Below are positions 2,880 to 43,623 of a stretch of 64,000 nucleotides of DNA, one piece after another. Under the pieces are notes generated by a model. That model did not search any database and had not been told where the DNA came from. It was given only the letters and a program-made list of their open reading frames with translations. Source of the DNA: Candidatus Moraniibacteriota bacterium. GTDB taxonomy: Bacteria; Patescibacteriota; Minisyncoccia; Moranbacterales; UBA1568. The DNA is taken from the NCBI GenBank assembly GCA_049287005.1, contig JBAQEZ010000003.1:31493-95492 (forward strand), written 5' to 3'. Every line of letters starts with the position of its first letter. Position 1 is the first letter of the stretch. The translations under genes were made by a program, and so were the position numbers.

Positions 2880-3530
2880 TTACAGCGTGGTAAATACCTG
2901 CTCCTCGGCATAACGCACCTTGACCGCTTGAGCGGCCGGGTCATCTATCTTGCGGAAACCCAATCCCACCATGACGCGCGATACCAAACCACGTTTGTCG
3001 AGACCCAGGATTGCATCGAAGGCTTGCGGATCGAATCCTTCCATCGGCGCCATATCAATCCCTTCCACCGCTGCCGCTGCCGCAAGGACGCCCAGGGCGA
3101 TATAGACTTGCCTGACTGCCCACTCGCGCGCACCAGCCTCTCCCTTCGCCTCTATGCTGCCATTCAACATGCCTCGAAAACCTTCCAAGGTTTCCACAGG
3201 AATGTTTTTCGTCACAGCGATGCTCTGCAGGTACTTGTCCACCAGCGCGGCATCGACATTCTTCTCAGTCGCCAAAACGAGGAAGTGGGAAGCGTCGGTA
3301 ATCTGCGGCTGATCATAGCCTGCGGCACGCAATTGCTTGCGCAGCTCCGTATCTTCCACGATGACGAAGTGCCACGGCTGGAGACCGAACGATGAAGGAG
3401 CGAGCCGGAGCGCCTCTTTCAAAGTATGTAACTGCTCCGCTGAGAGCTTCTTTTCCGGATCAAACTGCTTGGTGGCATAGCGCCACTGCAATGCTTCGAT
3501 AATATTTGACATAATATTCATATCAATCAC
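2880..3530 (-). CDS. NAD(P)H nitroreductase (NfsB-like)
   Basis: The N-terminus RYATKQFDPEKKLSAEQLHTLKEALRLAPSSFGLQPWHFVIV is the nitroreductase FMN-binding signature. Confidence 0.8.
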   Translation of the reverse strand: MIDMNIMSNIIEALQWRYATKQFDPEKKLSAEQLHTLKEALRLAPSSFGLQPWHFVIVEDTELRKQLRAAGYDQPQITDASHFLVLATEKNVDAALVDKYLQSIAVTKNIPVETLEGFRGMLNGSIEAKGEAGAREWAVRQVYIALGVLAAAAAVEGIDMAPMEGFDPQAFDAILGLDKRGLVSRVMVGLGFRKIDDPAAQAVKVRYAEEQVFTTL

Positions 3531-3602
3531 AAATTATACTTGCATCCTAACAGATAACATACTATTATACAAGTACATACATATTAGTAAGTATAACTCT
3601 CT

Positions 3603-3917
3603 ATGAAACAAGGCTCTCTCCAAACATCGTGCCCACTCGAGAAGACGCTTCGGATGATTGTCGGAAAATGGAAAACCATTCTCCTGTGGCATCTTTCCTC
3701 CGGGAAGAAGCGCTACGGGGAACTGAAGAAGCTCATTCCGGCGGTGAGCGAAAAGATGCTCATCCAATCGCTCCGCGCGCTCGAACAAGACGAGCTTGTG
3801 ATTCGTCGCGTCTATCCCGAGATTCCGCCGCGCGTCGAATACAGTCTGAGCAAGCGAGGCAAGAGCCTCTCCTCACTCATCTGCGCCCTCAATACTTGGG
3901 GCAAGAAACATCTGTAA
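3603..3917 (+). CDS. HxlR-family winged-helix transcriptional regulator
   Basis: CPLEKTLRMIVGKWKTILLWHLSSGKKRYGELKK...PRVEYSLSKRG matches HxlR/DUF24. It is divergent from the nitroreductase, which is a common pairing. Confidence 0.8.
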   Translation: MKQGSLQTSCPLEKTLRMIVGKWKTILLWHLSSGKKRYGELKKLIPAVSEKMLIQSLRALEQDELVIRRVYPEIPPRVEYSLSKRGKSLSSLICALNTWGKKHL

Positions 3918-3940
3918 AAACTCCCGCTCCGCATCAGAAG

Positions 3941-4948
3941 CTAGGGCAACACCTCCTGACTTTCTTGGATATCGATCAGAAAAAGATTGCGGAGCTCCGA
4001 CGCGAAAGTGTGGTTCGTGCTGATCACGTTCACTTCATAGTTGATCCAAAAGCTGAGCCAGTCAAAATTGCAGCTGCCCACGGAAGCCCAGTGATCGTCT
4101 ATGACAATGGATTTGGCATGCAGCACCTTCGCGGTATACAAAAAGACACGGACGCCATGGCGGCGCAATGTTTTAAAATACCTTTTCGCCAGCAGATCCG
4201 CCAGCAGAATATCCGACTTCTCGGGGAGCAGGATACGGACATCCACGCCTTTCGTATGCGCGTAGTAAAGCGCCCGACGAAATTCCGCGTTGGGGGAAAA
4301 ATAGGCGCTGGTGATATAGATATATTTTTTGGCCGCGGTGATATGACGAAGGAAAGAACGATAGAGATCCTTATCATGGAGATAGAAAGAGTTGCCGGCA
4401 ATGGAAAACTCCGCCCCTTCCTTCTTGGAGAGCACTCGTCCGACAGGATCCATTTTACGAGACCGCTGCCATACGGTATCGAAAGACCGAGCCAGTTCGC
4501 TCACTACCTTGCCGCGCAAACAGACTGAGGTATCCCTCCACGAACGCGCTTGCCCCGCGATAATCACACCGCCGATATGTGCTTCGTTCCTATCCACCAC
4601 AAGCAGTTTGCGGTGGTCTCGGAGCACCAAAGGGAACAATCTCTTCAGAGAAGGGATGAGGATCCCCCGGTGGAAAGCCACTTGCACTCCCCCTGCCTCA
4701 AGCTCTTGCCGCAGCGCTCCACGGTAAAAACCGAAGCTTCCCACCGCGTCAAACAGCAGGCGGACGACCACCCCCGCTTTGGCTTTGGCTAAAAATAAAT
4801 CAGCGAAGGTCCGTTCGATCGTAGTGCCCCCGCCAAAAATATACTGTTCCAAGTCGATGGTCTCTTTCGCTTCACGACACGACGCCAGCATCGCCTCCCA
4901 GGCCATTTCAGAAGTAGTGGAAAATTTCCAAGAATAGGCTTCGTTCAT
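3941..4948 (-). CDS. Phospholipase D-family protein with two HKD motifs (cardiolipin synthase-like; no N-terminal TM helices)
   Basis: HKD motif 1 is HRKLLVVD and HKD motif 2 is HAKSIVIDDHWASVGSCNFD. Confidence 0.75.
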   Translation of the reverse strand: MNEAYSWKFSTTSEMAWEAMLASCREAKETIDLEQYIFGGGTTIERTFADLFLAKAKAGVVVRLLFDAVGSFGFYRGALRQELEAGGVQVAFHRGILIPSLKRLFPLVLRDHRKLLVVDRNEAHIGGVIIAGQARSWRDTSVCLRGKVVSELARSFDTVWQRSRKMDPVGRVLSKKEGAEFSIAGNSFYLHDKDLYRSFLRHITAAKKYIYITSAYFSPNAEFRRALYYAHTKGVDVRILLPEKSDILLADLLAKRYFKTLRRHGVRVFLYTAKVLHAKSIVIDDHWASVGSCNFDWLSFWINYEVNVISTNHTFASELRNLFLIDIQESQEVLP

Positions 4949-4951
4949 AAT

Positions 4952-5395
4952 TTACTCCCCGATGATTTGCAAAGCTATTTTTCTCGGACGTGAACAATCG
5001 AGTTCTATGGCAAATACCCTCTGCCACGTACCCAGCTGCAAACTATTTTTCATCACGTTGAGCATCGTTGAAGTCGGCAGATGGAGAGCCTTGCTATGAG
5101 CATGTCCGTTAGCCTTCTCGAAAGGCGTCATATTGACCGTGCGTATCTTGAAATTGTCATGCATATATTTGTACGTTCTCGGCGCCAGTTTTTCCAATAA
5201 AACTTTCATATCCTTGATGAGGAGCGGTTCGGCCTCATTCACGATCACGGCCATCGTGGTATGGAGGCTCTGGATATTGATAATGCCGTTTTTTATTTTG
5301 GATGCTTTTATTTTTTTCTGGATTTTTTCGGTAATATCGATGAAGTCCAGCGTCGTAGCGGTCGTCAACCGTATGACATGATTTACGATTCTCAT
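4952..5395 (-). CDS. YjbQ/UPF0047 family protein (secondary thiamine-phosphate synthase-like)
   Basis: 147 aa. TTATTLDFIDITEKI...GIINIQSLHTTMAVIVNE...GHAHSKA...QRVFAIELD matches the YjbQ family. Confidence 0.8.
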   Translation of the reverse strand: MRIVNHVIRLTTATTLDFIDITEKIQKKIKASKIKNGIINIQSLHTTMAVIVNEAEPLLIKDMKVLLEKLAPRTYKYMHDNFKIRTVNMTPFEKANGHAHSKALHLPTSTMLNVMKNSLQLGTWQRVFAIELDCSRPRKIALQIIGE

Positions 5396-28024: not shown

Positions 28025-31000
28025 ATGACAAAAGTGATCCGCAAAAGCGCCTCTCCTCATTCCGAAAAAGACGAGCGGTCTCAGGAAATTTTAAAAAAAA
28101 TGCGCACGGGTTCGATCGAGGAGCAAGCTTCCCTTTTGGCAAACGCGCACGGTCTTACCTATACGGATCTGCACGTCTTTCCGATGAGCGCCGAGGATAT
28201 CATCCTGATTCCGGAAAGCGAGGCAAAAAAATTCAACCTCGTCCTGTTCAATACAAAAAATGCACTGGCTCGTTTCGCTCTTCTTGATCCCGCTAATGCG
28301 GAGGCGTTCCAATTCATCAAAGATGTTTCTGCTCTCCACGGATGGCAACCGGAAATATATATCGTTTCCCAGCCGTCGCTGGAACGAGCCTGGAAAGCTT
28401 ACTCCAAGCGCACGTTTATCGATAATCTGGATCTCGTCCGGGTCTCTCTCGGAGGTGACGATGTGGAAAAATTCGAGAAAGATTTCGGGGAGCTCGTGGC
28501 TCTCAAAGACAGCCACACAGCCAATACTTCGCGAGCCATGGAAATCATCCTGGCCGGCGCGAGAAAACTCCATGCCAGCGATATCCATCTGGAACCGGAA
28601 GAAAACGAGGTCCGCCTCCGTTACCGGATCGACGGTGTTTTGCAAGAAATAGGCAACCTGCCACAAGAACGCTACCATCTGATGCTGTCGCGCATCAAGA
28701 TGATTGCCAAGATGCGTCTCAACGTGCGCAAAGAGGCTCAAGACGGCCATTTTTTCATCAATCTGGAGGACAAGCGCATCGACGTGCGCGTCAACAGCAT
28801 TCCAGGCAAATACGGCGAAAATATCAACATGCGCCTTCTCTCAGGCGATGATGTCATCGTCGATGTCACGGCTCTCGGTCTCCGCGGCCTCGCCTACGAG
28901 GAGGTCATGAAACAAATCACCAAACCCAACGGCCTCATCCTCAACACGGGACCGACCGGTTCAGGGAAGACGACGACACTCTACACGCTGCTCAACCATA
29001 TCAATCAGCCAGAGATGAAGGTCATCACTATCGAAGACCCGATCGAATACACGCTGCCCGGTATCGTACAAACAGAAATTTCCAAGAACAAAGACTACAC
29101 GTTCGCAACGGCGCTCCGAGCCGTTGTCCGCCAAGATCCAGATATTATTCTCGTTGGAGAAATTCGCGACGACGAAACCGCTGATATTACCGTCAATGCC
29201 GCGCTGACCGGACATTTGGTGTTTTCTACGCTCCATGCCAATAGCTCGGCAGCGGCCATTCCGCGTTTTATGGAGCTTGGGGTCAAGCCGTCGCTCATCT
29301 CTGCCTCGCTCAATGCGCTCATCGGGCAACGCTTGGTACGCGTTCTCTGCGAACACTGCAAAGAATCCTATGAACCAGCGCGCGAAACGATCGATTCTAT
29401 CCTGAAACTCGTCACGATCATCTCCCCGAAAGCAAAAATTTCTCTCCCTAAGGAGGTAAAGGTCCTGTACAAATCGGTTGGGTGTGCTCAATGTCATTTC
29501 ACCGGATACCATGGACGCATCGGCATCTTTGAAGTCCTTACCATGACACAAGGAGTGGTAGAAATAATAAACAACATGGGTACTGAACAAGAGATTCTCC
29601 GCGCCGCCCTGGAAAACGGGATGGTCACTATGACGCAAGACGGGATACTCAAGGCGCTCGAAGGAACCACGACGCTTGATGAAGTGTGGCGAGTCGCCGA
29701 CCAGACAGAATCACTCCGCACTATTTATACAGAACTGATGCCGAGTGAGCTCTCTCGTTCCACGCATATCACAGAGGATCTTTTTGACGCGACAAAAAAA
29801 GAAATAGCCTCTCTCAAAAACTTTACTGCCTACGTAGGAACCCTGGATTCTAAGCTGCGCCTTCCTTCTCTCTTCGCAGGAGCCATCCTCATGCGCGCTG
29901 GAGACATTCACATCGAACCGAACGGAGATACCGTCGAGGTCCGCTTCCGCATCGATGGGATTCTCCAAACAGCCGCCCGCTTTCCGATTGCCGACTACCC
30001 GACGCTCATTGCGGAAATCAAGCTGGCTGCCGGACTCAAGTCCGGTGAGCGTTCCGGTACTATCGATGGTCGCTTCTCCCTCACCCTGGAAAAGATGGGA
30101 ACAAGCAAGATCGAGACCATCGATATTCGCCTCTCCATCATTCTCGGCGGCTTTGGAGAGACCATTGTGATGCGCCTGCTCAATCAGGCTGCCGTCAAAC
30201 TCGATCTTGATCTGCTCCATATCCGCAAAAAAAATCTTGAGAATATTTACACCGCCATCAGCAAACCTCACGGCGTCATCTTGAACGTCGGGCCGACCGG
30301 TTCCGGAAAAACGACGACGCTCTATAGCATCTTGGCCAAGCTCAACACGCCCGAAGTAAAAATTATTACCGTCGAAGACCCGATCGAATATCAGATTCCT
30401 GGCATCCTCCAGACCCAAACGAAAGAAAGCGAGGGTTATACGTTCGCCACAGCGCTCCGCTCGCTCATGCGTCAGAATCCGAATATTCTGATGATAGGTG
30501 AAATTCGCGACGACGAAACTGCTCAAATGGCTGTCCAGGCAGCCAGTACCGGCCATCTCGTCCTTTCCACGCTCCACACCAACTCAGCCGCCGGGGTTGT
30601 TTCTCGCCTGACAGCCATGGGGGTAAGCAACGATGACATTGCCAACACCGCCAACCTTTTTATGTCCCAACGCCTCGTCCGCAAAGCGTGTCAGAAGTGC
30701 AAAAAGCTCCTGCCGCCTACCAAAGAAGAAAAGGCTCTTATCGAAAAAATGCTCAGCTCGATGCCGGCATCGGCAGAAAAAGAGGCTGCCTTGAAAAACA
30801 TGTCCCTCCCTCATGAAAAGGGTTGCCCGGAGTGCGGCGGCACCGGTTTCGCCGGACAGATGATCATCGCCGAAACGCTTCTCGTTGACAAAAATCTTTC
30901 TGAGCTCATCTCACGCGGAGCGCTCGTCAGTGAAATCGAAGAAAAAGCCATCGAGCTCGGCATGATCACGATGACACAAGACGGCATTCTTTCTGTGCTG

Positions 31001-31048
31001 GAAGGCGACACCACGCTCGGAGAAATAAAGCGCGTGACGGATATTTGA
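28025..31048 (+). CDS. Tandem-duplicated type II/IV secretion ATPase (two complete GspE/PilB-like modules fused in one 1007-aa polypeptide)
   Basis: Module 1: an N-terminal N1E-like domain, Walker A NTGPTGSGKTTTLY, Walker B IILVGEIRDDETA, His box LVFSTLHAN and a CEHC...CAQC tetracysteine. Module 2: Walker A NVGPTGSGKTTTLY, Walker B ILMIGEIRDDETA, His box LVLSTLHTN and CQKC...CPECGG. Confidence 0.85.
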   Translation: MTKVIRKSASPHSEKDERSQEILKKMRTGSIEEQASLLANAHGLTYTDLHVFPMSAEDIILIPESEAKKFNLVLFNTKNALARFALLDPANAEAFQFIKDVSALHGWQPEIYIVSQPSLERAWKAYSKRTFIDNLDLVRVSLGGDDVEKFEKDFGELVALKDSHTANTSRAMEIILAGARKLHASDIHLEPEENEVRLRYRIDGVLQEIGNLPQERYHLMLSRIKMIAKMRLNVRKEAQDGHFFINLEDKRIDVRVNSIPGKYGENINMRLLSGDDVIVDVTALGLRGLAYEEVMKQITKPNGLILNTGPTGSGKTTTLYTLLNHINQPEMKVITIEDPIEYTLPGIVQTEISKNKDYTFATALRAVVRQDPDIILVGEIRDDETADITVNAALTGHLVFSTLHANSSAAAIPRFMELGVKPSLISASLNALIGQRLVRVLCEHCKESYEPARETIDSILKLVTIISPKAKISLPKEVKVLYKSVGCAQCHFTGYHGRIGIFEVLTMTQGVVEIINNMGTEQEILRAALENGMVTMTQDGILKALEGTTTLDEVWRVADQTESLRTIYTELMPSELSRSTHITEDLFDATKKEIASLKNFTAYVGTLDSKLRLPSLFAGAILMRAGDIHIEPNGDTVEVRFRIDGILQTAARFPIADYPTLIAEIKLAAGLKSGERSGTIDGRFSLTLEKMGTSKIETIDIRLSIILGGFGETIVMRLLNQAAVKLDLDLLHIRKKNLENIYTAISKPHGVILNVGPTGSGKTTTLYSILAKLNTPEVKIITVEDPIEYQIPGILQTQTKESEGYTFATALRSLMRQNPNILMIGEIRDDETAQMAVQAASTGHLVLSTLHTNSAAGVVSRLTAMGVSNDDIANTANLFMSQRLVRKACQKCKKLLPPTKEEKALIEKMLSSMPASAEKEAALKNMSLPHEKGCPECGGTGFAGQMIIAETLLVDKNLSELISRGALVSEIEEKAIELGMITMTQDGILSVLEGDTTLGEIKRVTDI

Positions 31049-32518: not shown

Positions 32519-32737
32519 ATGCAATCGATTTTTGGAATTGTTTATTTGCTGCTTTTTTTCAGCTACGTTCTCGTCGCGATTTTCATCATTTTTCATATTT
32601 TCCGTTACTCTCTCAAGCGCGGCGCGGCTCTATTCGGCGCCACTCTGTTCTCTGTTGTCTTGGCCGTCTTACTTCTCGCCAACTTCCTCCTCTTCCTGTC
32701 GCTTCCATTCAATGAGCTCCTTGCACATACTTTCTGA
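32519..32737 (+). CDS. Small hypothetical membrane protein (72 aa, 2 TM)
   Basis: Two hydrophobic helices. Immediately upstream of the bPH_2 membrane protein gene and on the same strand. Confidence 0.3.
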   Translation: MQSIFGIVYLLLFFSYVLVAIFIIFHIFRYSLKRGAALFGATLFSVVLAVLLLANFLLFLSLPFNELLAHTF

Positions 32738-32745
32738 ACATTTTT

Positions 32746-33291
32746 ATGGCCTCTCTATTTCATCGTTATCATTTTTCTGGGCAGCGCGAAGGCGAAGAGG
32801 TGGTTAGAGTGATCCATCGCCACTGGTTCAACATTTTTGCTCATTTTCTGCTCATCCTGCTCTTTTCCTTGCTGCTGGTCGGGAGTCTCGTGACACTCCC
32901 TGCTCTTTTTCCGGATATGCTCCGTGCGGTGGATGCGCGCTTTTTCATCTTCATGGAAAACACCTTTTTCATTTTTCTCTGGCTTTTCAGCTTTCTCATA
33001 TGGATCGACTATTATTTCGATGTCTGGATCATCACCAGCCAACGTATCGTCAACATCGAGCAGAAAGGGTTGTTTAACCGCCACATAAGCGAGCTCAACT
33101 TCTCCAACATTCAGGATGTCACTACGACCGTGGAAGGCATCATCCCCACGGTGCTGAATTTCGGCGAAGTCCTAGTGCAGACCGCTGGTGAGAAAGAACG
33201 CTTTGTCTTCCATATGGTTCCGGACCCCTACAAAATCAAAGACGCTATCATGAAAATTTCCGAACACTCTCGCTCCGATGGCTTGCGCTAG
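32746..33291 (+). CDS. Bacterial PH-domain (bPH_2 / YdbS-like) membrane protein
   Basis: Two N-terminal TM helices followed by a roughly 80-aa PH-like domain (ITSQRIVNIEQKGLFNRHISELNFSNIQDV...). Confidence 0.6.
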   Translation: MASLFHRYHFSGQREGEEVVRVIHRHWFNIFAHFLLILLFSLLLVGSLVTLPALFPDMLRAVDARFFIFMENTFFIFLWLFSFLIWIDYYFDVWIITSQRIVNIEQKGLFNRHISELNFSNIQDVTTTVEGIIPTVLNFGEVLVQTAGEKERFVFHMVPDPYKIKDAIMKISEHSRSDGLR

Positions 33292-34685: not shown

Positions 34686-35342
34686 ATGGCGTACCATCCT
34701 CTCATTACTTTTTTTGTGACACAGGGCGTACCGGTGCAAACTATCGTCCTTCTTTTGATGCTGCCGATCGTAGCGACGCTGGTGGCCTTCTTCCGCCAAG
34801 TCATAGGTGTCAAGGCTTTCGGCATCTACACTCCCTCCATCATCACCTTTGCTTTGCTCGCCTTTGATCCGAATGGCGTGAAGTACGGCATCGCCATTTT
34901 CATCAGCGTTATCTTGGTCGGGATGGTGACCCGTTTTATCTTAAAAAGGTTCCGCCTGCTTTATCTGCCGCGCGTCGCCATCACCCTTTCCATCATTTCT
35001 CTCGCCATCCTCTTCATTCTCGTGGTGGGCGGGGCGTACCAGCGCACCGGGCTGGCTTCGGTATCTATCTTTCCGCTCCTCATCATGATCACGCTCGCGG
35101 AGAAATTCATCGCGACACAAATCGAGAAAGGGAGCCGAGCTGCCTTCATCTTGGCGGCCGAGACGCTCGTCATTTCTGTCATTGGCTATTTCCTGGTAAG
35201 CTGGCACGCGCTCACCGTCTTGATTCTGGAATACCCTTGGCTGGTTCTTCTTACTTTCGTCATCAATTTCTCTTTGGGGAAATGGACGGGCTTGCGCATT
35301 ACGGAATATTTCCGTTTTCGCAAAATCGCCCGTTATTTATAG
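34686..35342 (+). CDS. Seven-TM integral membrane protein; candidate stand-alone 7TM partner of the ATP-grasp/protease module (7TM_transglut-like, lacking a transglutaminase domain)
   Basis: Seven predicted hydrophobic helices in 218 aa, sitting 21 nt upstream of the ATP-grasp-protease fusion gene on the same strand. Confidence 0.5.
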   Translation: MAYHPLITFFVTQGVPVQTIVLLLMLPIVATLVAFFRQVIGVKAFGIYTPSIITFALLAFDPNGVKYGIAIFISVILVGMVTRFILKRFRLLYLPRVAITLSIISLAILFILVVGGAYQRTGLASVSIFPLLIMITLAEKFIATQIEKGSRAAFILAAETLVISVIGYFLVSWHALTVLILEYPWLVLLTFVINFSLGKWTGLRITEYFRFRKIARYL

Positions 35343-35363
35343 TTTTCTTTCTTCGACTTCTCT

Positions 35364-36779
35364 ATGTTTGAATTTTTCAAAAAAAGCCAGGGGCTCCTTG
35401 GCATGAACGCGCGGAACCTCGAGTACATCCGCCCTCATAATCGCCGCCGCGGCATGGAGATTGCCGACAGCAAACTTCTCTGCAAGCGCATCTTGAAAAA
35501 AAATAGTCTCGGCGTCTCCACACTCATTGCCAAAATAAAAAATTACGAAGAACTCGATCAATTCGATTTTACGACGCTGCCCGATAGTTTTGCCCTGAAG
35601 CCGAACCGCGGTTTCGGAGGCGAAGGCATCATGGTGGTGTACGCTCGCAAAAAATCTGCTCGCGCTGCCGGCGAAAATCATGGCAATGTCTGGATAAAAG
35701 CCGACGGATCTACCATTACGACTGAGGATCTCAAAAGTCATATTCGCAACATTATCGATGGATCATTCTCTCTTTCCAACGTTCCCGATATCGCTTTTTT
35801 TGAAGAGCGGCTAAAGCTCCTCAAGCTCTTCAAACCATACTCCTACAAAGGCATCCCCGATATCCGCATCATCATCTTCAACCGCATCCCGGTTATGGCG
35901 ATGCTCCGTCTCCCGACCCGCGCCTCTGACGGCAAGGCCAACCTCCAGCAGGGGGCCATCGGCGTCGGCATCGACCTGGCGACCGGCACAACGACGAGCG
36001 CTATTTTGGGGAAAGGCCACATTATCGAATATGTTCCCGGCACACGTCTCGCTCTCTCGGGCATCAAAATCCCCTACTGGAAAACCATTCTCCGTATGGC
36101 TATCGATGCTCAATCGATATCACACCTCGGCTTCCTCGGCGCCGATATCGCCATCGATCGCGACCGCGGTCCGGTCATCCTGGAGCTGAATGCCCGGCCG
36201 GGGCTGTCTATCCAGCTGGCAAATCTGAGCGGCCTGAAAGAGCGCCTGAAACGCATCGGCGGACTGAAGATCAAAACTCCCGAGCGCGGCATGCGCGTCG
36301 GGATGAACCTCTTCGGCGGCGAGATCGAAGAAGAAATCGAGGAGCTCTCCGGCAAGCACGTCATCGGGAGCATTGAGAAGATCAAACTCATCGGGAAGGA
36401 TGGTCAAGAAATCGAAGTGGAAGCGAAGATCGATACCGGTGCTGACTCCACCTCTATCGACACGGAGCTAGCCAGACAACTCGGGTTTGGAGAAGCGTTA
36501 AAAACATTCGGGGAAAGAGCCTCAGGAAAAAATATTCTTGCCGAGCTTTCCAAAGAAGAACGCGAGAGTCTTTTTTCTCATATCCCTGATCTCGCAGATA
36601 CAGTCCCGATCAAATCTTCCCACGGGGTTTCCTACCGTCCGGTCGTACTCCTCACGCTCATCGTCGACTCAGTCGCTATCCCCGCGAAGGTTTCTTGCAT
36701 CGATCGTTCGCATCTCGCCTACCCTGTTATTATCGGCCGCAAACATTTGAGAAAATTTCTCATCGATATCAACAAATAA
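35364..36779 (+). CDS. Alpha-L-glutamate ligase-related (RimK-like ATP-grasp) enzyme fused to a C-terminal retropepsin-like (RimB/PF05618-type) aspartic protease domain
   Basis: The N-terminus QGLLGMNARNLEYIRPHN... matches the start of alpha-L-glutamate-ligase-related proteins. ATP-grasp core (FALKPNRGFGGEGIMVV ... ILELNARPG). The C-terminal ~150 aa carry the retropepsin motif KIDTGADSTSID and a second half ending ...AYPVIIGRKHL. Confidence 0.7.
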   Translation: MFEFFKKSQGLLGMNARNLEYIRPHNRRRGMEIADSKLLCKRILKKNSLGVSTLIAKIKNYEELDQFDFTTLPDSFALKPNRGFGGEGIMVVYARKKSARAAGENHGNVWIKADGSTITTEDLKSHIRNIIDGSFSLSNVPDIAFFEERLKLLKLFKPYSYKGIPDIRIIIFNRIPVMAMLRLPTRASDGKANLQQGAIGVGIDLATGTTTSAILGKGHIIEYVPGTRLALSGIKIPYWKTILRMAIDAQSISHLGFLGADIAIDRDRGPVILELNARPGLSIQLANLSGLKERLKRIGGLKIKTPERGMRVGMNLFGGEIEEEIEELSGKHVIGSIEKIKLIGKDGQEIEVEAKIDTGADSTSIDTELARQLGFGEALKTFGERASGKNILAELSKEERESLFSHIPDLADTVPIKSSHGVSYRPVVLLTLIVDSVAIPAKVSCIDRSHLAYPVIIGRKHLRKFLIDINK

Positions 36780-36842
36780 TCTGCCCCATTTTTTTATTGT
36801 TCCTTTTTTAGAGATTGTTTTTAATTTTTTTTGACACCCCCT

Positions 36843-37838
36843 ATGACGTTGGAAGATTACATCAAGAATATCAAGCACGGCGGCTTCAAGTCCTTTCTCA
36901 AAAAGGCATCGGGTCTCGGCGTACAGATAGAGATGATCGAGGAAGAGGGCTCTCCTATCTTGAAACTCACCTACAAAGAGAAAGCTATTTTTTGCTATAA
37001 AAGGAATCTGCCTATTTACAAAAGGATGGGCAACCTCACAAAAAATAAAGCGGTTACCAAAACGATTCTCGAAGCTTCAGGCATCCAAACGCCCAAAGGA
37101 ATCACCGCCACTTCCCTGAGGGAAGCTCTGGATCTCGTCCGAAAGAAAAAACTCCGCTACCCGCTCATTTGCAAACCCGTTGACGGATCGCTGGCCAAAG
37201 GCGTGACCTGGGATATCGCTTCGCCCCAAGAGCTGCGCGTCGCTGTCGCCCACGCGAAGGGCGCCTATGGCAAGCGTCCGCGAGCCAGATTTCTGATTGA
37301 GGAAATGTTCGTTGCGAACGAGTACCGCGTCTTGATCTTCAATGGCAAAGTGCTCTCTTGCGTGCAAAAAATTTCTGCGGGGGTCACTGGCGACGGGGTC
37401 TCTACTATCGAGGAGCTCATTTCCCGTTTCAATGCGAAAAGATTGCCTGGCTTTGAAATCAAGCTCGACAAGACAGCGAAGGAGACCCTCAAGACGCGCC
37501 TCCTCTCTCTCAAGTCCGTGCTCCCAAAAAATCATTTTTTCAAATTAAGGAATAATCTCAACATGTCTGACGGTGGGAGATCTATCGATTGTACGAAAGA
37601 CATGCATGCTGCTTTCAAAGATATCTGTACGCGGGCCATTGAGGCAGTAGGTCTCACCTATGGCGGCATCGATTTTTTTGCAAAGGATATTTCTTCTTCG
37701 GCAAGCGAATACGTTATTATCGAAATCAACCCCAACCCTTTCTACAATATGCACGAGAAACCACTTGTGGAAGGCAAAGGAGTGGATGTTTCCAGCGAAA
37801 TCCTCAAGGGAATCTTTCCGCGGCTAGACAAAAAATAG
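36843..37838 (+). CDS. Second ATP-grasp enzyme, cyanophycin-synthetase (CphA N-terminal ATP-grasp)-like
   Basis: LTKNKAVTKTILEASGIQTPKG...YPLICKPVDGSLAKGV...NEYRVLIFNGKVLSCV...YVIIEINPNP parallels the CphA and RimK ATP-grasp motifs. Confidence 0.6.
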   Translation: MTLEDYIKNIKHGGFKSFLKKASGLGVQIEMIEEEGSPILKLTYKEKAIFCYKRNLPIYKRMGNLTKNKAVTKTILEASGIQTPKGITATSLREALDLVRKKKLRYPLICKPVDGSLAKGVTWDIASPQELRVAVAHAKGAYGKRPRARFLIEEMFVANEYRVLIFNGKVLSCVQKISAGVTGDGVSTIEELISRFNAKRLPGFEIKLDKTAKETLKTRLLSLKSVLPKNHFFKLRNNLNMSDGGRSIDCTKDMHAAFKDICTRAIEAVGLTYGGIDFFAKDISSSASEYVIIEINPNPFYNMHEKPLVEGKGVDVSSEILKGIFPRLDKK

Positions 37839-40497: not shown

Positions 40498-40788
40498 TCA
40501 CATCTGTTGAGTGATTTTGATTTCTTGTACCACGTCTCCCCCCAACACCTCATTGATGCGCTGCGCCAGATGGCTCCGCATCAGATACACCTCGCTCGCC
40601 CACAGCGAGCTCCGCGGCGAAAGGAAAAGTTTTTTTTCTTTATAATACGTAGGGATAATATTATCCCCTCCTCGCACACCGTATTCCTCCACCAAAACAC
40701 GCTTCGCGATATGAAAAATTGTTTTTTCATCCACCTCCTCCGAGGATGCCCGCTGTTTTTTCGGTAGAAGATCTTTCAGGGAACGCAT
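40498..40788 (-). CDS. DUF721 (DciA-like) protein downstream of dnaN
   Basis: 96 aa, immediately after dnaN (a conserved position). LFLSPRSSLWASEVYLMRSHLAQRINEVLG resembles DUF721. Confidence 0.55.
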   Translation of the reverse strand: MRSLKDLLPKKQRASSEEVDEKTIFHIAKRVLVEEYGVRGGDNIIPTYYKEKKLFLSPRSSLWASEVYLMRSHLAQRINEVLGGDVVQEIKITQQM

Positions 40789-40796
40789 AATAATAA

Positions 40797-41948
40797 CTAT
40801 TTCCTAATAGGCATCACAATGTAGAGATAGCTCTCCGCAAGGGCGGTTTTCGCCCCGTCTTGTGCGCGAAGCGCCGCGGGGGTCGCTCCATCGTTCGCTG
40901 AAAAGAGAATTTTTTCGCTCGCAAGGACATTTATCCCCTCCAGAACGTAACGTGGGTTAAAGACGATAGTCAGCGGTTCCGCGCCCTGGGCCACCTCCAT
41001 CGGCAACACTGTTTTATTTTCCCCGATTTCCTGAGATTGCGACGAGATGGTGCATTGTTTCCCCTCTGGCTGAAACGAAAGAGTGATCTCGCCTGAATTA
41101 TAAGAAGAGAAGCTGCTCGCTATTTTTACCGCTCTCTGGAAGGCTTCTTTTTCCAAAACCACTTGCAGAGAGAAGTCCTTTGGAATAATCTGCTTATAAT
41201 CAGGGTACTTCCCATTAATAACCCTGGATATGATCTGCACGCCGTCTATTTCAAAAAATATCTGATTTTCCTTTAAGGCAACTTTCACTTCTTTGCTTTC
41301 CGGAGAAATAACATGAATAATTTCCTGTAAAGTATTCCCAGGAATAATAAGGGAAGGGTTCTGAGAAAGAAAATCGCTATACCCGCTTCCCTGGTTCGTA
41401 AACGCGATAGTCTCCTCCGCCAAACGAAAGCTGTCGGTCGCCGCAAGCTCAATCTTGTCTTGATAAAAGAAAATATGCACCCCCGTAAGCTCCAGGCGCG
41501 CATTATTCAAACTGATACAGAACAACAGCCTTGAAAGAGCCCTTTTCAGCTCTTGTGCAGGGAAAAAGAAAAAATAATCCTGCTTATACTCAGGGATAAT
41601 AGGAAAATCTTTCCCATCCAAGCCTTTTATCTTTATCTGATAAGAAGTACTGATTATTTTCAACCCCTCATTATCACTCTCTAATTCAAGAACATCTCCT
41701 AAAGGAAGATTGTGAATAAAATTACTCAGGAGTTTTGCAGGAACAGCTAATTTACCTTCCTGCTCTATTTTTGCCCCGATATACGCGATCACCCCTATCT
41801 CCAAGTTTGTCGCAGAAATCTTCAATCTCCCTTTTTCTGTTTCCAATAAAAAATTACTCAAAATAGGAAGCGTGGATTGTTTCCCTGCCACACGTTCCAA
41901 ATAAAAGATGACTCGGTTAAGATTTTCATGCGTGCAGATGAGTTTCAT
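40797..41948 (-). CDS. dnaN: DNA polymerase III beta subunit (sliding clamp)
   Basis: MKLICTHENLNRVIFYLERVAGKQSTLPILSNFLLE...; three-domain clamp, 383 aa, directly downstream of dnaA. Confidence 0.9.
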   Translation of the reverse strand: MKLICTHENLNRVIFYLERVAGKQSTLPILSNFLLETEKGRLKISATNLEIGVIAYIGAKIEQEGKLAVPAKLLSNFIHNLPLGDVLELESDNEGLKIISTSYQIKIKGLDGKDFPIIPEYKQDYFFFFPAQELKRALSRLLFCISLNNARLELTGVHIFFYQDKIELAATDSFRLAEETIAFTNQGSGYSDFLSQNPSLIIPGNTLQEIIHVISPESKEVKVALKENQIFFEIDGVQIISRVINGKYPDYKQIIPKDFSLQVVLEKEAFQRAVKIASSFSSYNSGEITLSFQPEGKQCTISSQSQEIGENKTVLPMEVAQGAEPLTIVFNPRYVLEGINVLASEKILFSANDGATPAALRAQDGAKTALAESYLYIVMPIRK

Positions 41949-42207
41949 AAGACTTGTATTAATATTCTTTTAAAATTATATATAAAAACTTCTTATTATC
42001 ATTAGAGGTGTGGATATCTGGATAAGTCGGTTTTTCTCTTTGTATGAGGGATTATTTTTTGAGGGATTATTTTTTTATATCCCCGGCAAGAGATGGATAA
42101 ATGGGGCACAAAGAGAGGTGTTCGTGAGAGTTCTTAATTATCCACACCAGCACCTCTTTTATACAAACGCTCCGCACCGGCGTTGAGGGGTTATACAGGA
42201 TTATACA
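41949..42207. promoter_or_regulatory. dnaA-dnaN intergenic region: oriC candidate with DnaA boxes, an AT-rich DUE-like tract and a 15-bp tandem repeat
   Basis: Perfect DnaA box TTATCCACA at 42138-42146. One-mismatch boxes TGTGGATAT (42008-16) and TCTGGATAA (42017-25). AT-rich tract at 41955-42000. Tandem GAGGGATTATTTTTT x2 at 42046-42076. Confidence 0.6.
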
Positions 42208-43623
42208 CTACACAGGGTAGTAGAGACGCTCTCGGAGGGTGCCTAATTCTTCTTTGAGCCGCGGGGAAGACTCTTTATTCATGTTGATTTTTTCGAATGC
42301 GTGGAGGGCGGTGGTGTGGTCTCTCCCCCCGAAAATATCCCCGATGGCGGAAAAGGGCGTTTGGAGTTCGGTTCGGAGGATGTACATCATTACTTGGCGC
42401 GGGTGTGAAATTTCCTTTTTCCGGCCCTTTTTCACGATATCTTCTTTGGTGATATTGTAAAACTCCGTCACGACACGGAAAATATCGTCTACCTGGATGG
42501 TTTTTTTGTTGTTTTCGATGAGTTGGGAGAGGATTTTCTTGGTGTTCTCCAGTGTCGGAGAAAGCTTATGAAATTCGCAGAAAGCGATCACTCGGGTGAG
42601 GGCTCCTTCGAGCTCACGGATGTTCTGGCTGATATTTTCGGCGATAAAACGGATGGCTGGCGTATCGATGACGAAGCTCCTCTCCGCGATTTTTGACTCC
42701 AAAATGGCGATTCTCGTCTCGAGATTTGGGCGGCTGATATCGGTGATCATGCCGCCTTCGAAACGTGAGCGCAGGCGTTCTTCCAGGGTGGGGATGGCTT
42801 TCGGCGGGCGGTCGCTGGAGATGACGACCTGCTTGTTGATCTGGTAGAGAGCGTTAAAGATATGGAAAAATTCATTTTGGGTCTTTTCTCTGCCGGAAAG
42901 AAACTGGATGTCGTCAATAATGAGAAGATCCATCTGTTGGTAGTACTCTTTGAATTTGTCGATTTTTTGATTTTTGATAGAGTCGACGAGTTCTGTTGTG
43001 AAGCGTTCAGAATTGATATACTTGATTCTTTTTTCGGGTGAATTTTTCGCCACCTCGTTCCCGATAGATTGGAGGAGGTGAGTTTTCCCGAGCCCGACCC
43101 CCCCGTAGATAAAAAGCGGATTGTAAGCCATACCGAGGTTCTGTGAGACAGCGTAACAGGCCGCACGCGCCAGCTCGTTGTTCTCGGCGACAATGAAATT
43201 TTCGAACGTGTACCGGTTATTGAGATTTGTTTCATGAAATGTCGGGGTAGATGACCCCGACTCGGTGAAAAAAGGCTTTTCTATAAGCTTTTTTCGCACG
43301 AATCCGGTGGCCTCGGGGGACCGCACCGCGTCGACATTCTTGACGGAATCTATGGCTGGCAAGGAAGAGGTAAATTTTTCTGGAGCGATAACGCAGCGGA
43401 TATTCTGCACGTTCTGATCGAGACTTTTTAAGGCGCGCAAAATATAAAGATTATATTTGTTTTCCAGCCATTCTTTCGCGAAACCGTTCGGCACGCCGAT
43501 CGTGACCACTCCGTCTTGATGGCTTATGACACTCGTGTTCTTGAACCAGGTGATAAAGTTTGCTCTGGAAATAGAGAGCTCCATTTGCCCCAAAACAGCC
43601 CCCCACAACTCCTCGTTTGTCAT
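42208..43623 (-). CDS. dnaA: Chromosomal replication initiator protein DnaA
   Basis: AAA+ Walker A YGGVGLGKTHLLQSIGNE, the DnaA signature, and a C-terminal DNA-binding domain; 471 aa. Confidence 0.95.
   Translation of the reverse strand: MTNEELWGAVLGQMELSISRANFITWFKNTSVISHQDGVVTIGVPNGFAKEWLENKYNLYILRALKSLDQNVQNIRCVIAPEKFTSSLPAIDSVKNVDAVRSPEATGFVRKKLIEKPFFTESGSSTPTFHETNLNNRYTFENFIVAENNELARAACYAVSQNLGMAYNPLFIYGGVGLGKTHLLQSIGNEVAKNSPEKRIKYINSERFTTELVDSIKNQKIDKFKEYYQQMDLLIIDDIQFLSGREKTQNEFFHIFNALYQINKQVVISSDRPPKAIPTLEERLRSRFEGGMITDISRPNLETRIAILESKIAERSFVIDTPAIRFIAENISQNIRELEGALTRVIAFCEFHKLSPTLENTKKILSQLIENNKKTIQVDDIFRVVTEFYNITKEDIVKKGRKKEISHPRQVMMYILRTELQTPFSAIGDIFGGRDHTTALHAFEKINMNKESSPRLKEELGTLRERLYYPV

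Follow-up and report, generated by a model that had tools for sequence, protein, structure and literature searches.

Comparative analysis of a membrane protein and an ATP-grasp–retropepsin fusion from Moranbacteria related to the rlo and rim systems

In the 64-kb stretch of Candidatus Moraniibacteriota DNA analysed here (contig JBAQEZ010000003.1, positions 31,493 to 95,492; called the window in the following), which corresponds to about 8% of the genome, such genomes having a size of about 0.8 Mb, three consecutive genes code for a seven-transmembrane (7TM) protein, for a fusion of an ATP-grasp ligase with a retropepsin-like protease, and for a second ATP-grasp protein. The first-pass annotation of this locus, made from the sequence alone, regarded the three genes as one module and as a system that had not been characterised. 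Which of these genes belong together, what do they produce, and is the system new? Judged by homology and gene linkage, the module, which occurs in bacteria of the Candidate Phyla Radiation (CPR), is related to the rlo and rim systems; it is a fused, slimmed-down form with two core genes, namely those of the 7TM protein and of the fusion protein.

The rloABC genes of Pseudomonas aeruginosa were characterised genetically and structurally (Lormand et al., mBio 2025, PMC12239564): RloA is a secreted retropepsin, which cuts stretches of at least eight consecutive glutamates, RloB consists of an inactive transglutaminase and a 7TM part, and RloC is an ATP-grasp protein. In the cytoplasmic RimK/RimB system, the protein S6 is polyglutamylated and then trimmed, RimB being the enzyme that cleaves poly-Glu (Little et al., JBC 2025, PMC11957791); a RimB-RimK hybrid from Desulfotalea, whose protease is N-terminal, was purified and is proteolytically active (PMC11957791). 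Since a homologous system has thus been characterised in 2025 and an active hybrid is known, the claim that the module has no characterised counterpart has to be withdrawn. Our literature search found no paper connecting these proteins with CPR bacteria.

The genes and domains dealt with below are the following (coordinates refer to the window):

34686-35342, plus strand: gene 1, 7TM protein, open reading frame (ORF) of 218 aa
35364-36779, plus strand: gene 2, ligase-protease fusion, ORF of 471 aa
35412-36260, plus strand: ATP-grasp domain of gene 2 (residues 17-299), PF14397 ATPgrasp_ST
36312-36356, plus strand: acidic linker of gene 2, FGGEIEEEIEELSGK (residues 317-331), Glu-rich, conserved, helical in the model
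36351-36776, plus strand: retropepsin-like protease domain of gene 2 (residues about 330-471), PF05618, with catalytic D357-T-G-A and an IIGR motif
36843-37838, plus strand: gene 3, accessory ATP-grasp ligase, 331 aa from ATG (335 aa from the TTG at 36831)

All three genes are co-directional, with gaps of 21 nt between genes 1 and 2 and of 51 nt between gene 2 and the gene 3 ORF that begins at TTG. The ORFs, their coordinates, the 21-nt gap and the motifs quoted in the first-pass annotation (GMNARNLEYI and a protease motif) are all present in the DNA.

Ligase and protease domains of the fusion protein

Searches with profile hidden Markov models (HMMs) bore out the proposed domain assignments, as PF14397, TIGR02291, PF05618 and PF14402 were matched. 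The N-terminal half of the fusion protein matches PF14397 (ATPgrasp_ST) over profile positions 2-277 of 278 with an E-value of 9.4e-66 and 222.3 bits, which is far above the gathering threshold of 31.4. It also matches TIGR02291 ('alpha-L-glutamate ligase-like', the RloC type) over positions 8-290 of 317 with an E-value of 4.5e-83. The RimK model TIGR00768 gave only a local match of 29.2 bits, below its cutoff of 143.4, and a search for the Rimk_N domain was without a match. The motif GMNARNLEYI is located at residues 13-22. In an alignment of 31 fusion sequences, which reaches down to 35% identity, the ATP- and Mg-binding residues K79, D261, E274 and N276 are invariant. The AlphaFold2 model of the fusion protein, computed from the same alignment, has a mean predicted local distance difference test (pLDDT) value of 88.5, and a Foldseek search of this model against the PDB ranked ArgX-LysW, CphA1 and RimK first; both the ATP-grasp and the retropepsin fold, which had been postulated beforehand, are confirmed. 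A search of the PDB with the sequence of the ligase domain had no match. The ligase half consequently combines the ATP-grasp fold with the lysine and the Asp/Glu/Asn Mg-binding residues that mark active members of this superfamily. Note that a public protein with 100% identity carries the annotation 'sugar-transfer associated ATP-grasp domain-containing protein'.

The C-terminal half matches PF05618 (Zn_protease, now RimB-like) with an E-value of 3.5e-9 and a score above the gathering threshold; the DTG site and the retropepsin fold are present. The NCBIfam models RloA1, RloA2 and RloA3 match residues 329-470 at 29-39 bits and remain below their cutoffs of 210-280 bits. The catalytic motif lies in the segment KIDTGADSTSID at residues 355-366, and D357-T358-G359, R425 and R448 are kept in at least 90% of the 31 sequences. 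RloA contacts the side chains of glutamate through R114 and R137, both of which are required for the cleavage of poly-Glu and for complementation (PMC12239564). In phmmer alignments with 9G58, 9G59 and 2PMA, the residues K355, D357, R425 and R448 of the fusion protein lie opposite the only Lys/Asp/Arg/Arg set which is common to these entries, and their spacings agree with those of K46, D48, R114 and R137 of RloA: the lysine is at position D-2, the distance from Asp to Arg is 66 (RloA numbering, after a gap of three residues), and the two arginines are 23 residues apart. To judge from the conservation of the active-site and the Glu-binding residues, both halves seem able to act as catalysts, and the protease seems adapted to acidic peptides.

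Neither a signal peptide nor a membrane segment nor a hydrophobic stretch in the linker was detected in the fusion protein. Because the protease domain does not stand at the N-terminus but follows a cytoplasmic ligase in the chain, it must be cytoplasmic as well. Each chain contains a single DTG motif, which is why the retropepsin is inferred to act as a homodimer with one active site. The two domains are joined by the acidic linker, in which F317 is invariant and G318 nearly so among the 31 sequences, and which forms a helix from residue 320 to 329 in the AlphaFold2 model. Given the preference of this protease family for poly-Glu, the linker could be a pseudo-substrate or a site of self-processing.

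The 7TM protein

Gene 1 codes for a member of PF14402 (7TM_transglut), which was matched with an E-value of 3.9e-28 and 99 bits at a gathering threshold of 25. The match to the NCBIfam model RloB (NF052267) is confined to model positions 312-505 of 508 and reaches 76.9 bits, below the cutoff of 900. Since this match covers the membrane part only, the protein lacks a transglutaminase domain, as the first-pass annotation had stated. The same domain is missing from all 120 listed clusters of 7TM homologues, 118 of which have a length of 217-220 aa. Seven helices are predicted, with the N-terminus outside and the C-terminus inside according to loop charges and the helices of a structure model of low quality; this topology fits the charge distribution of the loops, the helices of the model, and the single-chain fusions described below. 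An alignment of 23 sequences revealed an invariant motif, G-x-x-x-G-L-R-x-x-E-Y/F-x-R-F, in the cytoplasmic C-terminal part. A search of the protein with PF14102 gave no match at E-values up to 10. Similar-looking G...P motifs had suggested homology to CapC/PgsC, a membrane component of poly-gamma-glutamate synthesis; this candidate was rejected, as hhalign comparisons with fetched CapC/PgsC sequences resulted in probabilities of 0.15-0.19% and E-values of 0.3-0.4.

Distribution and linkage of the core pair

A locus scan, limited to a single genome from each species, yielded 43 loci, whose gene order was examined by tblastn with the proteins of the window. The ligase-retropepsin architecture was found in 40 independent genome loci and in more than 120 protein clusters with 72-100% identity; this recurrence makes an assembly artefact untenable as the origin of the fusion. 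Three further loci (L041-L043) were discarded as fusion loci, because they had been matched via the protease domain only; L041, which was checked, contains separate rimB and rimK genes of Bacteroidota. Wherever a locus includes upstream DNA (39 loci), the 7TM gene is located directly 5' of the fusion gene, and the pair spans Moranbacteria, Paceibacterota, Parcubacteria, WS6 and other Patescibacteria, with fusion proteins down to 37-50% identity. For the 26 Moranbacteria loci, the fusion and the 7TM protein both reach a median identity of 70%; the corresponding values of neighbouring genes are 79 for RuvB, 64 for PBP1A, 63 for RuvC, 60 for DnaN and 55 for YebC. The core pair is under strong purifying selection and is conserved as well as its housekeeping neighbours.

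A protein search covered 1.8 billion representative proteins, and the best 150 clusters at 50% identity were listed. About 46 of these combine ligase and retropepsin; about 43 consist of the ligase, with or without the retropepsin, and a MATCAP metallopeptidase in chains of about 790 aa. Further clusters among the listed matches append a YdjC domain or a second ATP-grasp domain. One protein (P0252) is a single-chain 7TM::ATPgrasp_ST fusion, which retains the motif G-x-R-x-x-E-x-x-R-F ahead of the ligase. In locus L044 (7TM gene at 3436-4980) the order is yebC-ruvC-[PKD+7TM]-[ATPgrasp_ST+MATCAP], N-terminal PKD domains taking the place of the transglutaminase-like domain. That single-chain fusions of the types 7TM::ligase and ligase::retropepsin::MATCAP exist speaks strongly and directly for a joint action of 7TM protein, ligase and peptidases in a single physical unit.

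With respect to taxonomy, eight records labelled 'uncultured Bdellovibrionales' (L004, L005, L011, L012, L015, L022, L023, L031) show the gene order of Moranbacteria at 63-81% protein identity to the window; in four labelled 'uncultured Gammaproteobacteria' (L033, L034, L036, L038), nothing but the 7TM-fusion pair is retained, and the identity is 37-42%. The labels of these third-party assemblies look wrong.

Gene 3 occupies a variable slot

The start of gene 3 was corrected to the ATG at 36843, rather than the TTG at 36831, on the basis of its orthologues and of an independent gene call (331 aa). The protein matches the cyanophycin synthetase model TIGR02068 with an E-value of 1e-56 and 192.5 bits, below the cutoff of 850, and only at positions 210-473 of 862, which correspond to the G domain. 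It also matches the C-terminal ligase of GshAB (E-value 5e-46). Among PDB sequences the best match is the G domain of CphA1 (7LG5, 6.7e-35), CphA1 and CphA2 being the closest solved relatives.

A CphA-like orthologue (49-84% identity) lies directly 3' of the fusion gene in only 8 of the 26 Moranbacteria loci. Elsewhere the slot holds one to three other genes, which code for RimK-like or YheCD/TTL-like ATP-grasp proteins, MATCAP-like HExxH peptidases, DUF3541 proteins or GT4 glycosyltransferases; at least one additional ATP-grasp gene is found in 31 of the 36 loci that have downstream DNA. The occupant varies even among genomes whose fusion protein is 74-82% identical to that of the window. Thus, the slot is conserved while its contents change fast, and the CphA-like gene is an accessory and no fixed third member. 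Of the proposed three-gene module, synteny sustains the 7TM-fusion coupling, which holds in every locus that could be judged; the third gene drops out. DUF3541 proteins recur in the variable slot of other CPR genomes (L028, 12312-13304; L019, 11423-12334).

A membrane-docked ligase and endopeptidase as the favoured function

The domain identities, catalytic residues, folds, gene linkage and slot variability reported above led us to favour, with a probability of about 0.5, an enzyme docked at the membrane which combines ligase and endopeptidase and both produces and trims an acidic peptide resembling poly-alpha-glutamate. By analogy with RimK and ArgX, the RloC-type ATP-grasp domain would convert a carboxylate to an acyl-phosphate and add amino acids singly; the likely product would be an acidic poly-alpha-glutamate-like peptide, either free or bound to an acceptor. 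The retropepsin is expected to cut the same acidic chains, because the DTG motif and the RloA-type Glu-binding Lys/Arg residues are kept. As a retropepsin it would have to dimerise for activity and would thereby dimerise the ligase, too. RimB stimulates the ATPase of RimK about 4-fold and likewise promotes poly-alpha-Glu synthesis, the formation of free poly-alpha-Glu requiring its presence (PMC11957791); in a similar manner the fused protease may limit chain length or free the product, and stimulate the ligase. The more general proposal of the first-pass annotation, that the module builds and trims a non-ribosomal peptide, agrees with what is known of the homologous RimK/RimB and Rlo systems (PMC11957791, PMC12239564).

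The fusion sets the ratio of ligase to protease to 1:1 and therefore ensures that the ligase is never made without the protease, which would remove a potentially harmful product. A precedent is Pseudomonas lacking rloA1-3: the osmotic, biofilm, antibiotic (beta-lactam) and shape defects of the triple mutant are suppressed by deletion of rloB or rloC (PMC12239564). The 7TM protein, with its N-terminus outside and its C-terminus inside, would dock the enzyme at the membrane, probably via its invariant cytoplasmic C-terminal helix; it may also present the acceptor, or guide acceptor or product through the membrane or along it. The CphA-G-like ligase would belong to a set of accessory ligases and peptidases that can replace one another and diversify the peptide. 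The physiology served by the module may be that of the envelope or of osmotic stress.

Several observations weigh against this reading. The TIGR02291 score of 278.9 bits is below the trusted cutoff of 314.2, which makes the ligase a close relative and no certified equivalog; for this reason, its equivalence to RloC is not established. The Pseudomonas protease is periplasmic and that of the window cytoplasmic, so that the product may be handled differently. The model of the 7TM protein is of low quality (pLDDT 55.9), with close relatives only in the input alignment; homology of this protein to known transporters or to CapC/PgsC was looked for and none was detected, which leaves its export role a guess. 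Finally, a glycopeptide or a cell-wall target would also agree with the changing set of accessory ligases and with the GT4 genes that some loci contain.

In a bolder version, which we consider doubtful, the 7TM protein and the fusion would form a self-contained membrane synthase/translocase of a non-ribosomal acidic peptide, that is, an evolutionarily unrelated analogue of the PgsBC machinery for poly-gamma-glutamate, and the swappable ligases and peptidases would give rise to a lineage-specific surface peptide. If this were true, such surface peptides would possibly be relevant to the episymbiotic cell-cell contact of CPR bacteria, the product of Pseudomonas Rlo would be identified, and the transglutaminase-like domain as well as the secretion of the protease would be later additions to an older cytoplasmic core.

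Alternative functions

The first alternative is protein tagging: a C-terminal tail of amino acids would be added by the ligase or ligases to S6, to another cytoplasmic protein or to the 7TM protein, and removed by the protease. RimK and ArgX/LysX, the nearest structural matches, all extend the C-termini of proteins (S6, LysW), and the TTL-like ligases and MATCAP-like carboxypeptidases of related loci resemble the pair that tails and trims tubulin. As to the acceptor, known substrates of RimK and LysX end in Glu, and S6 ends in Glu-Glu. The C-terminus of the 7TM protein, which the first-pass annotation had put forward as the target, is a poor candidate by comparison: the tail is basic (5 K/R, 1 D/E) and its last residues vary; of the 120 homologue clusters, 117 end in L, Q, I, M or F and a single one in E. 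Within the window, and thus within about 8% of the genome, there is neither rpsF nor a protein with an acidic C-terminal tail nor a run of at least four glutamates; moreover, a strict pairing with a membrane protein is foreign to RimK/RimB. We regard tagging as unlikely.

A modification of envelope glycopolymers or of peptidoglycan, in which amino acids or short peptides are put on a sugar- or lipid-linked precursor held by the 7TM protein, appears less probable still. The name and description of the PF14397 family ('sugar-transfer associated') would fit, as would the cell-shape and beta-lactam phenotypes of Pseudomonas rlo mutants and the quick changes in the contents of the accessory slot between closely related genomes, which are reminiscent of surface-polymer loci. 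In other members of the 7TM family, the N-terminus bears extracellular modules (PKD in L044, the inactive transglutaminase in RloB). GT4 genes follow the ligases in six loci; these are a minority, and the window contains none. The class A penicillin-binding protein PBP1A is encoded 3' of the module in Moranbacteria, and a functional link had been considered possible beforehand. This adjacency, however, belongs in Moranbacteria to a general synteny close to the origin (ruvB-yebC-ruvC-...-PBP1A-dnaN); in L044, genes on the opposite strand intervene, and PBP1A is missing from distant loci which retain the core pair, so that the idea of a link lost its basis. The conserved Glu-binding arginines of the protease indicate a peptide substrate rather than a glycan.

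Cyanophycin-like storage, that is, an Asp/Glu-based reserve polymer built by the CphA-like and RloC-like ligases and mobilised by the protease, is highly improbable: the similarity of gene 3 to the G domain of cyanophycin synthetase and the appearance of CphA1 among the best structural matches to the ligase domain of the fusion are outweighed by the absence of N and M domains and the low full-model score of gene 3, by its absence from most related loci, where the core pair is always kept and, as the comparative data suggest, functions fully, and by the lack of a cyanophycinase-type peptidase.

Genomic setting

Upstream of the 7TM gene are located ruvB, a gene for a bPH-domain protein, yebC and ruvC; gene 3 is followed by the gene for the class A penicillin-binding protein and, on the opposite strand, by dciA, dnaN and dnaA. 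The sign of the GC skew switches at about 42 kb, where the cumulative GC skew has its minimum; therefore, the region of the module adjoins the replication origin. The origin neighbourhood comprises dciA (96 aa), dnaN and dnaA at 40498-43623 on the minus strand, and the predicted origin is about 4 kb away from the module; the gene order around the module, ruvB-yebC-ruvC-7TM-fusion-(variable)-PBP1A-dnaN, is conserved as a block. A scan of the module for promoters and terminators yielded no intergenic terminator and no informative promoter; terminator-like sites occurred at chance level.

The interval between ruvB and yebC (32519-33291, plus strand) contains a small hydrophobic ORF of 72 aa and, behind it, the gene of a membrane protein of 181 aa that carries a bPH_2 domain; in distant loci neither is linked to the module. 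At 28025-31048 (plus strand), a protein of 1007 aa consists of two complete tandem ATPase units of the PilB/GspE type (T2SSE; PF00437 in two stretches, 713 bits). Secretion ATPases of the T2SSE type are usually hexamers of single units, so that a tandem single chain is unusual.

Significance

The CPR form is the smallest natural version of the system: one soluble polypeptide with both predicted activities and a membrane partner of 218 aa, which makes it attractive for reconstitution in vitro. It shows that the core function needs neither the periplasmic transglutaminase-like domain nor secretion of the protease. In Pseudomonas, Rlo influences how well the cells tolerate osmotic stress and beta-lactams, how they form biofilms, and which shape they have. 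The study of Lormand et al. assigned 96% of RloB sequence matches to Proteobacteria and proposed rlo to be a gammaproteobacterial innovation derived from rim (PMC12239564); the broad CPR distribution of the module fits poorly with this origin.

Comparison with known systems

The module and rloABC share the families PF14402, TIGR02291/PF14397 and PF05618, as well as the DTG motif and the Glu-binding residues K, R and R; in Pseudomonas the genes are adjacent, too, and genetically interdependent. The differences concern each of the components: the membrane protein of the window is without the periplasmic inactive-transglutaminase domain, and its protease is cytoplasmic and fused to the C-terminus of the ligase, whereas RloA of Pseudomonas is secreted and separate. 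Instead of the order A-B-C, the window contains B and then C::A, followed by the extra variable ATP-grasp genes. In addition, its proteins stay below all cutoffs of the NCBIfam Rlo models and of TIGR02291, and they come from a CPR bacterium. PF14397 and PF14402, together with the idea that members of both families jointly modify peptides, are said to go back to Iyer, Abhiman, Burroughs and Aravind (Mol Biosyst, 2009), who reportedly predicted gene neighbourhoods of ATP-grasp, 7TM-transglutaminase and aspartyl-protease proteins.

Compared with RimK/RimB, the ligase of the window belongs to another family, the pairing with a 7TM protein is strict, and nothing points to S6 as the target. In the RimBK hybrid the protease precedes RimK; the window protein has the reverse order, with the ATP-grasp domain (17-299) preceding the protease (330-471), and does not qualify as a RimBK hybrid. 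With the G domain of CphA1 and with GshAB there is sequence homology across the whole ATP-grasp region, and the chemistry of C-terminal peptide extension is alike; unlike CphA1, the product of gene 3 stands alone, lacks the N and M (Mur-ligase-like) domains and is an interchangeable accessory. In principle, fusing a ligase with a protease is thus nothing new; the module differs in the family of its ligase, in the order of the domains and in its 7TM partner. In terms of its predicted components, the module is a third arrangement, which combines an Rlo-type ligase and 7TM protein with a Rim-like cytoplasmic protease in reverse fusion order.

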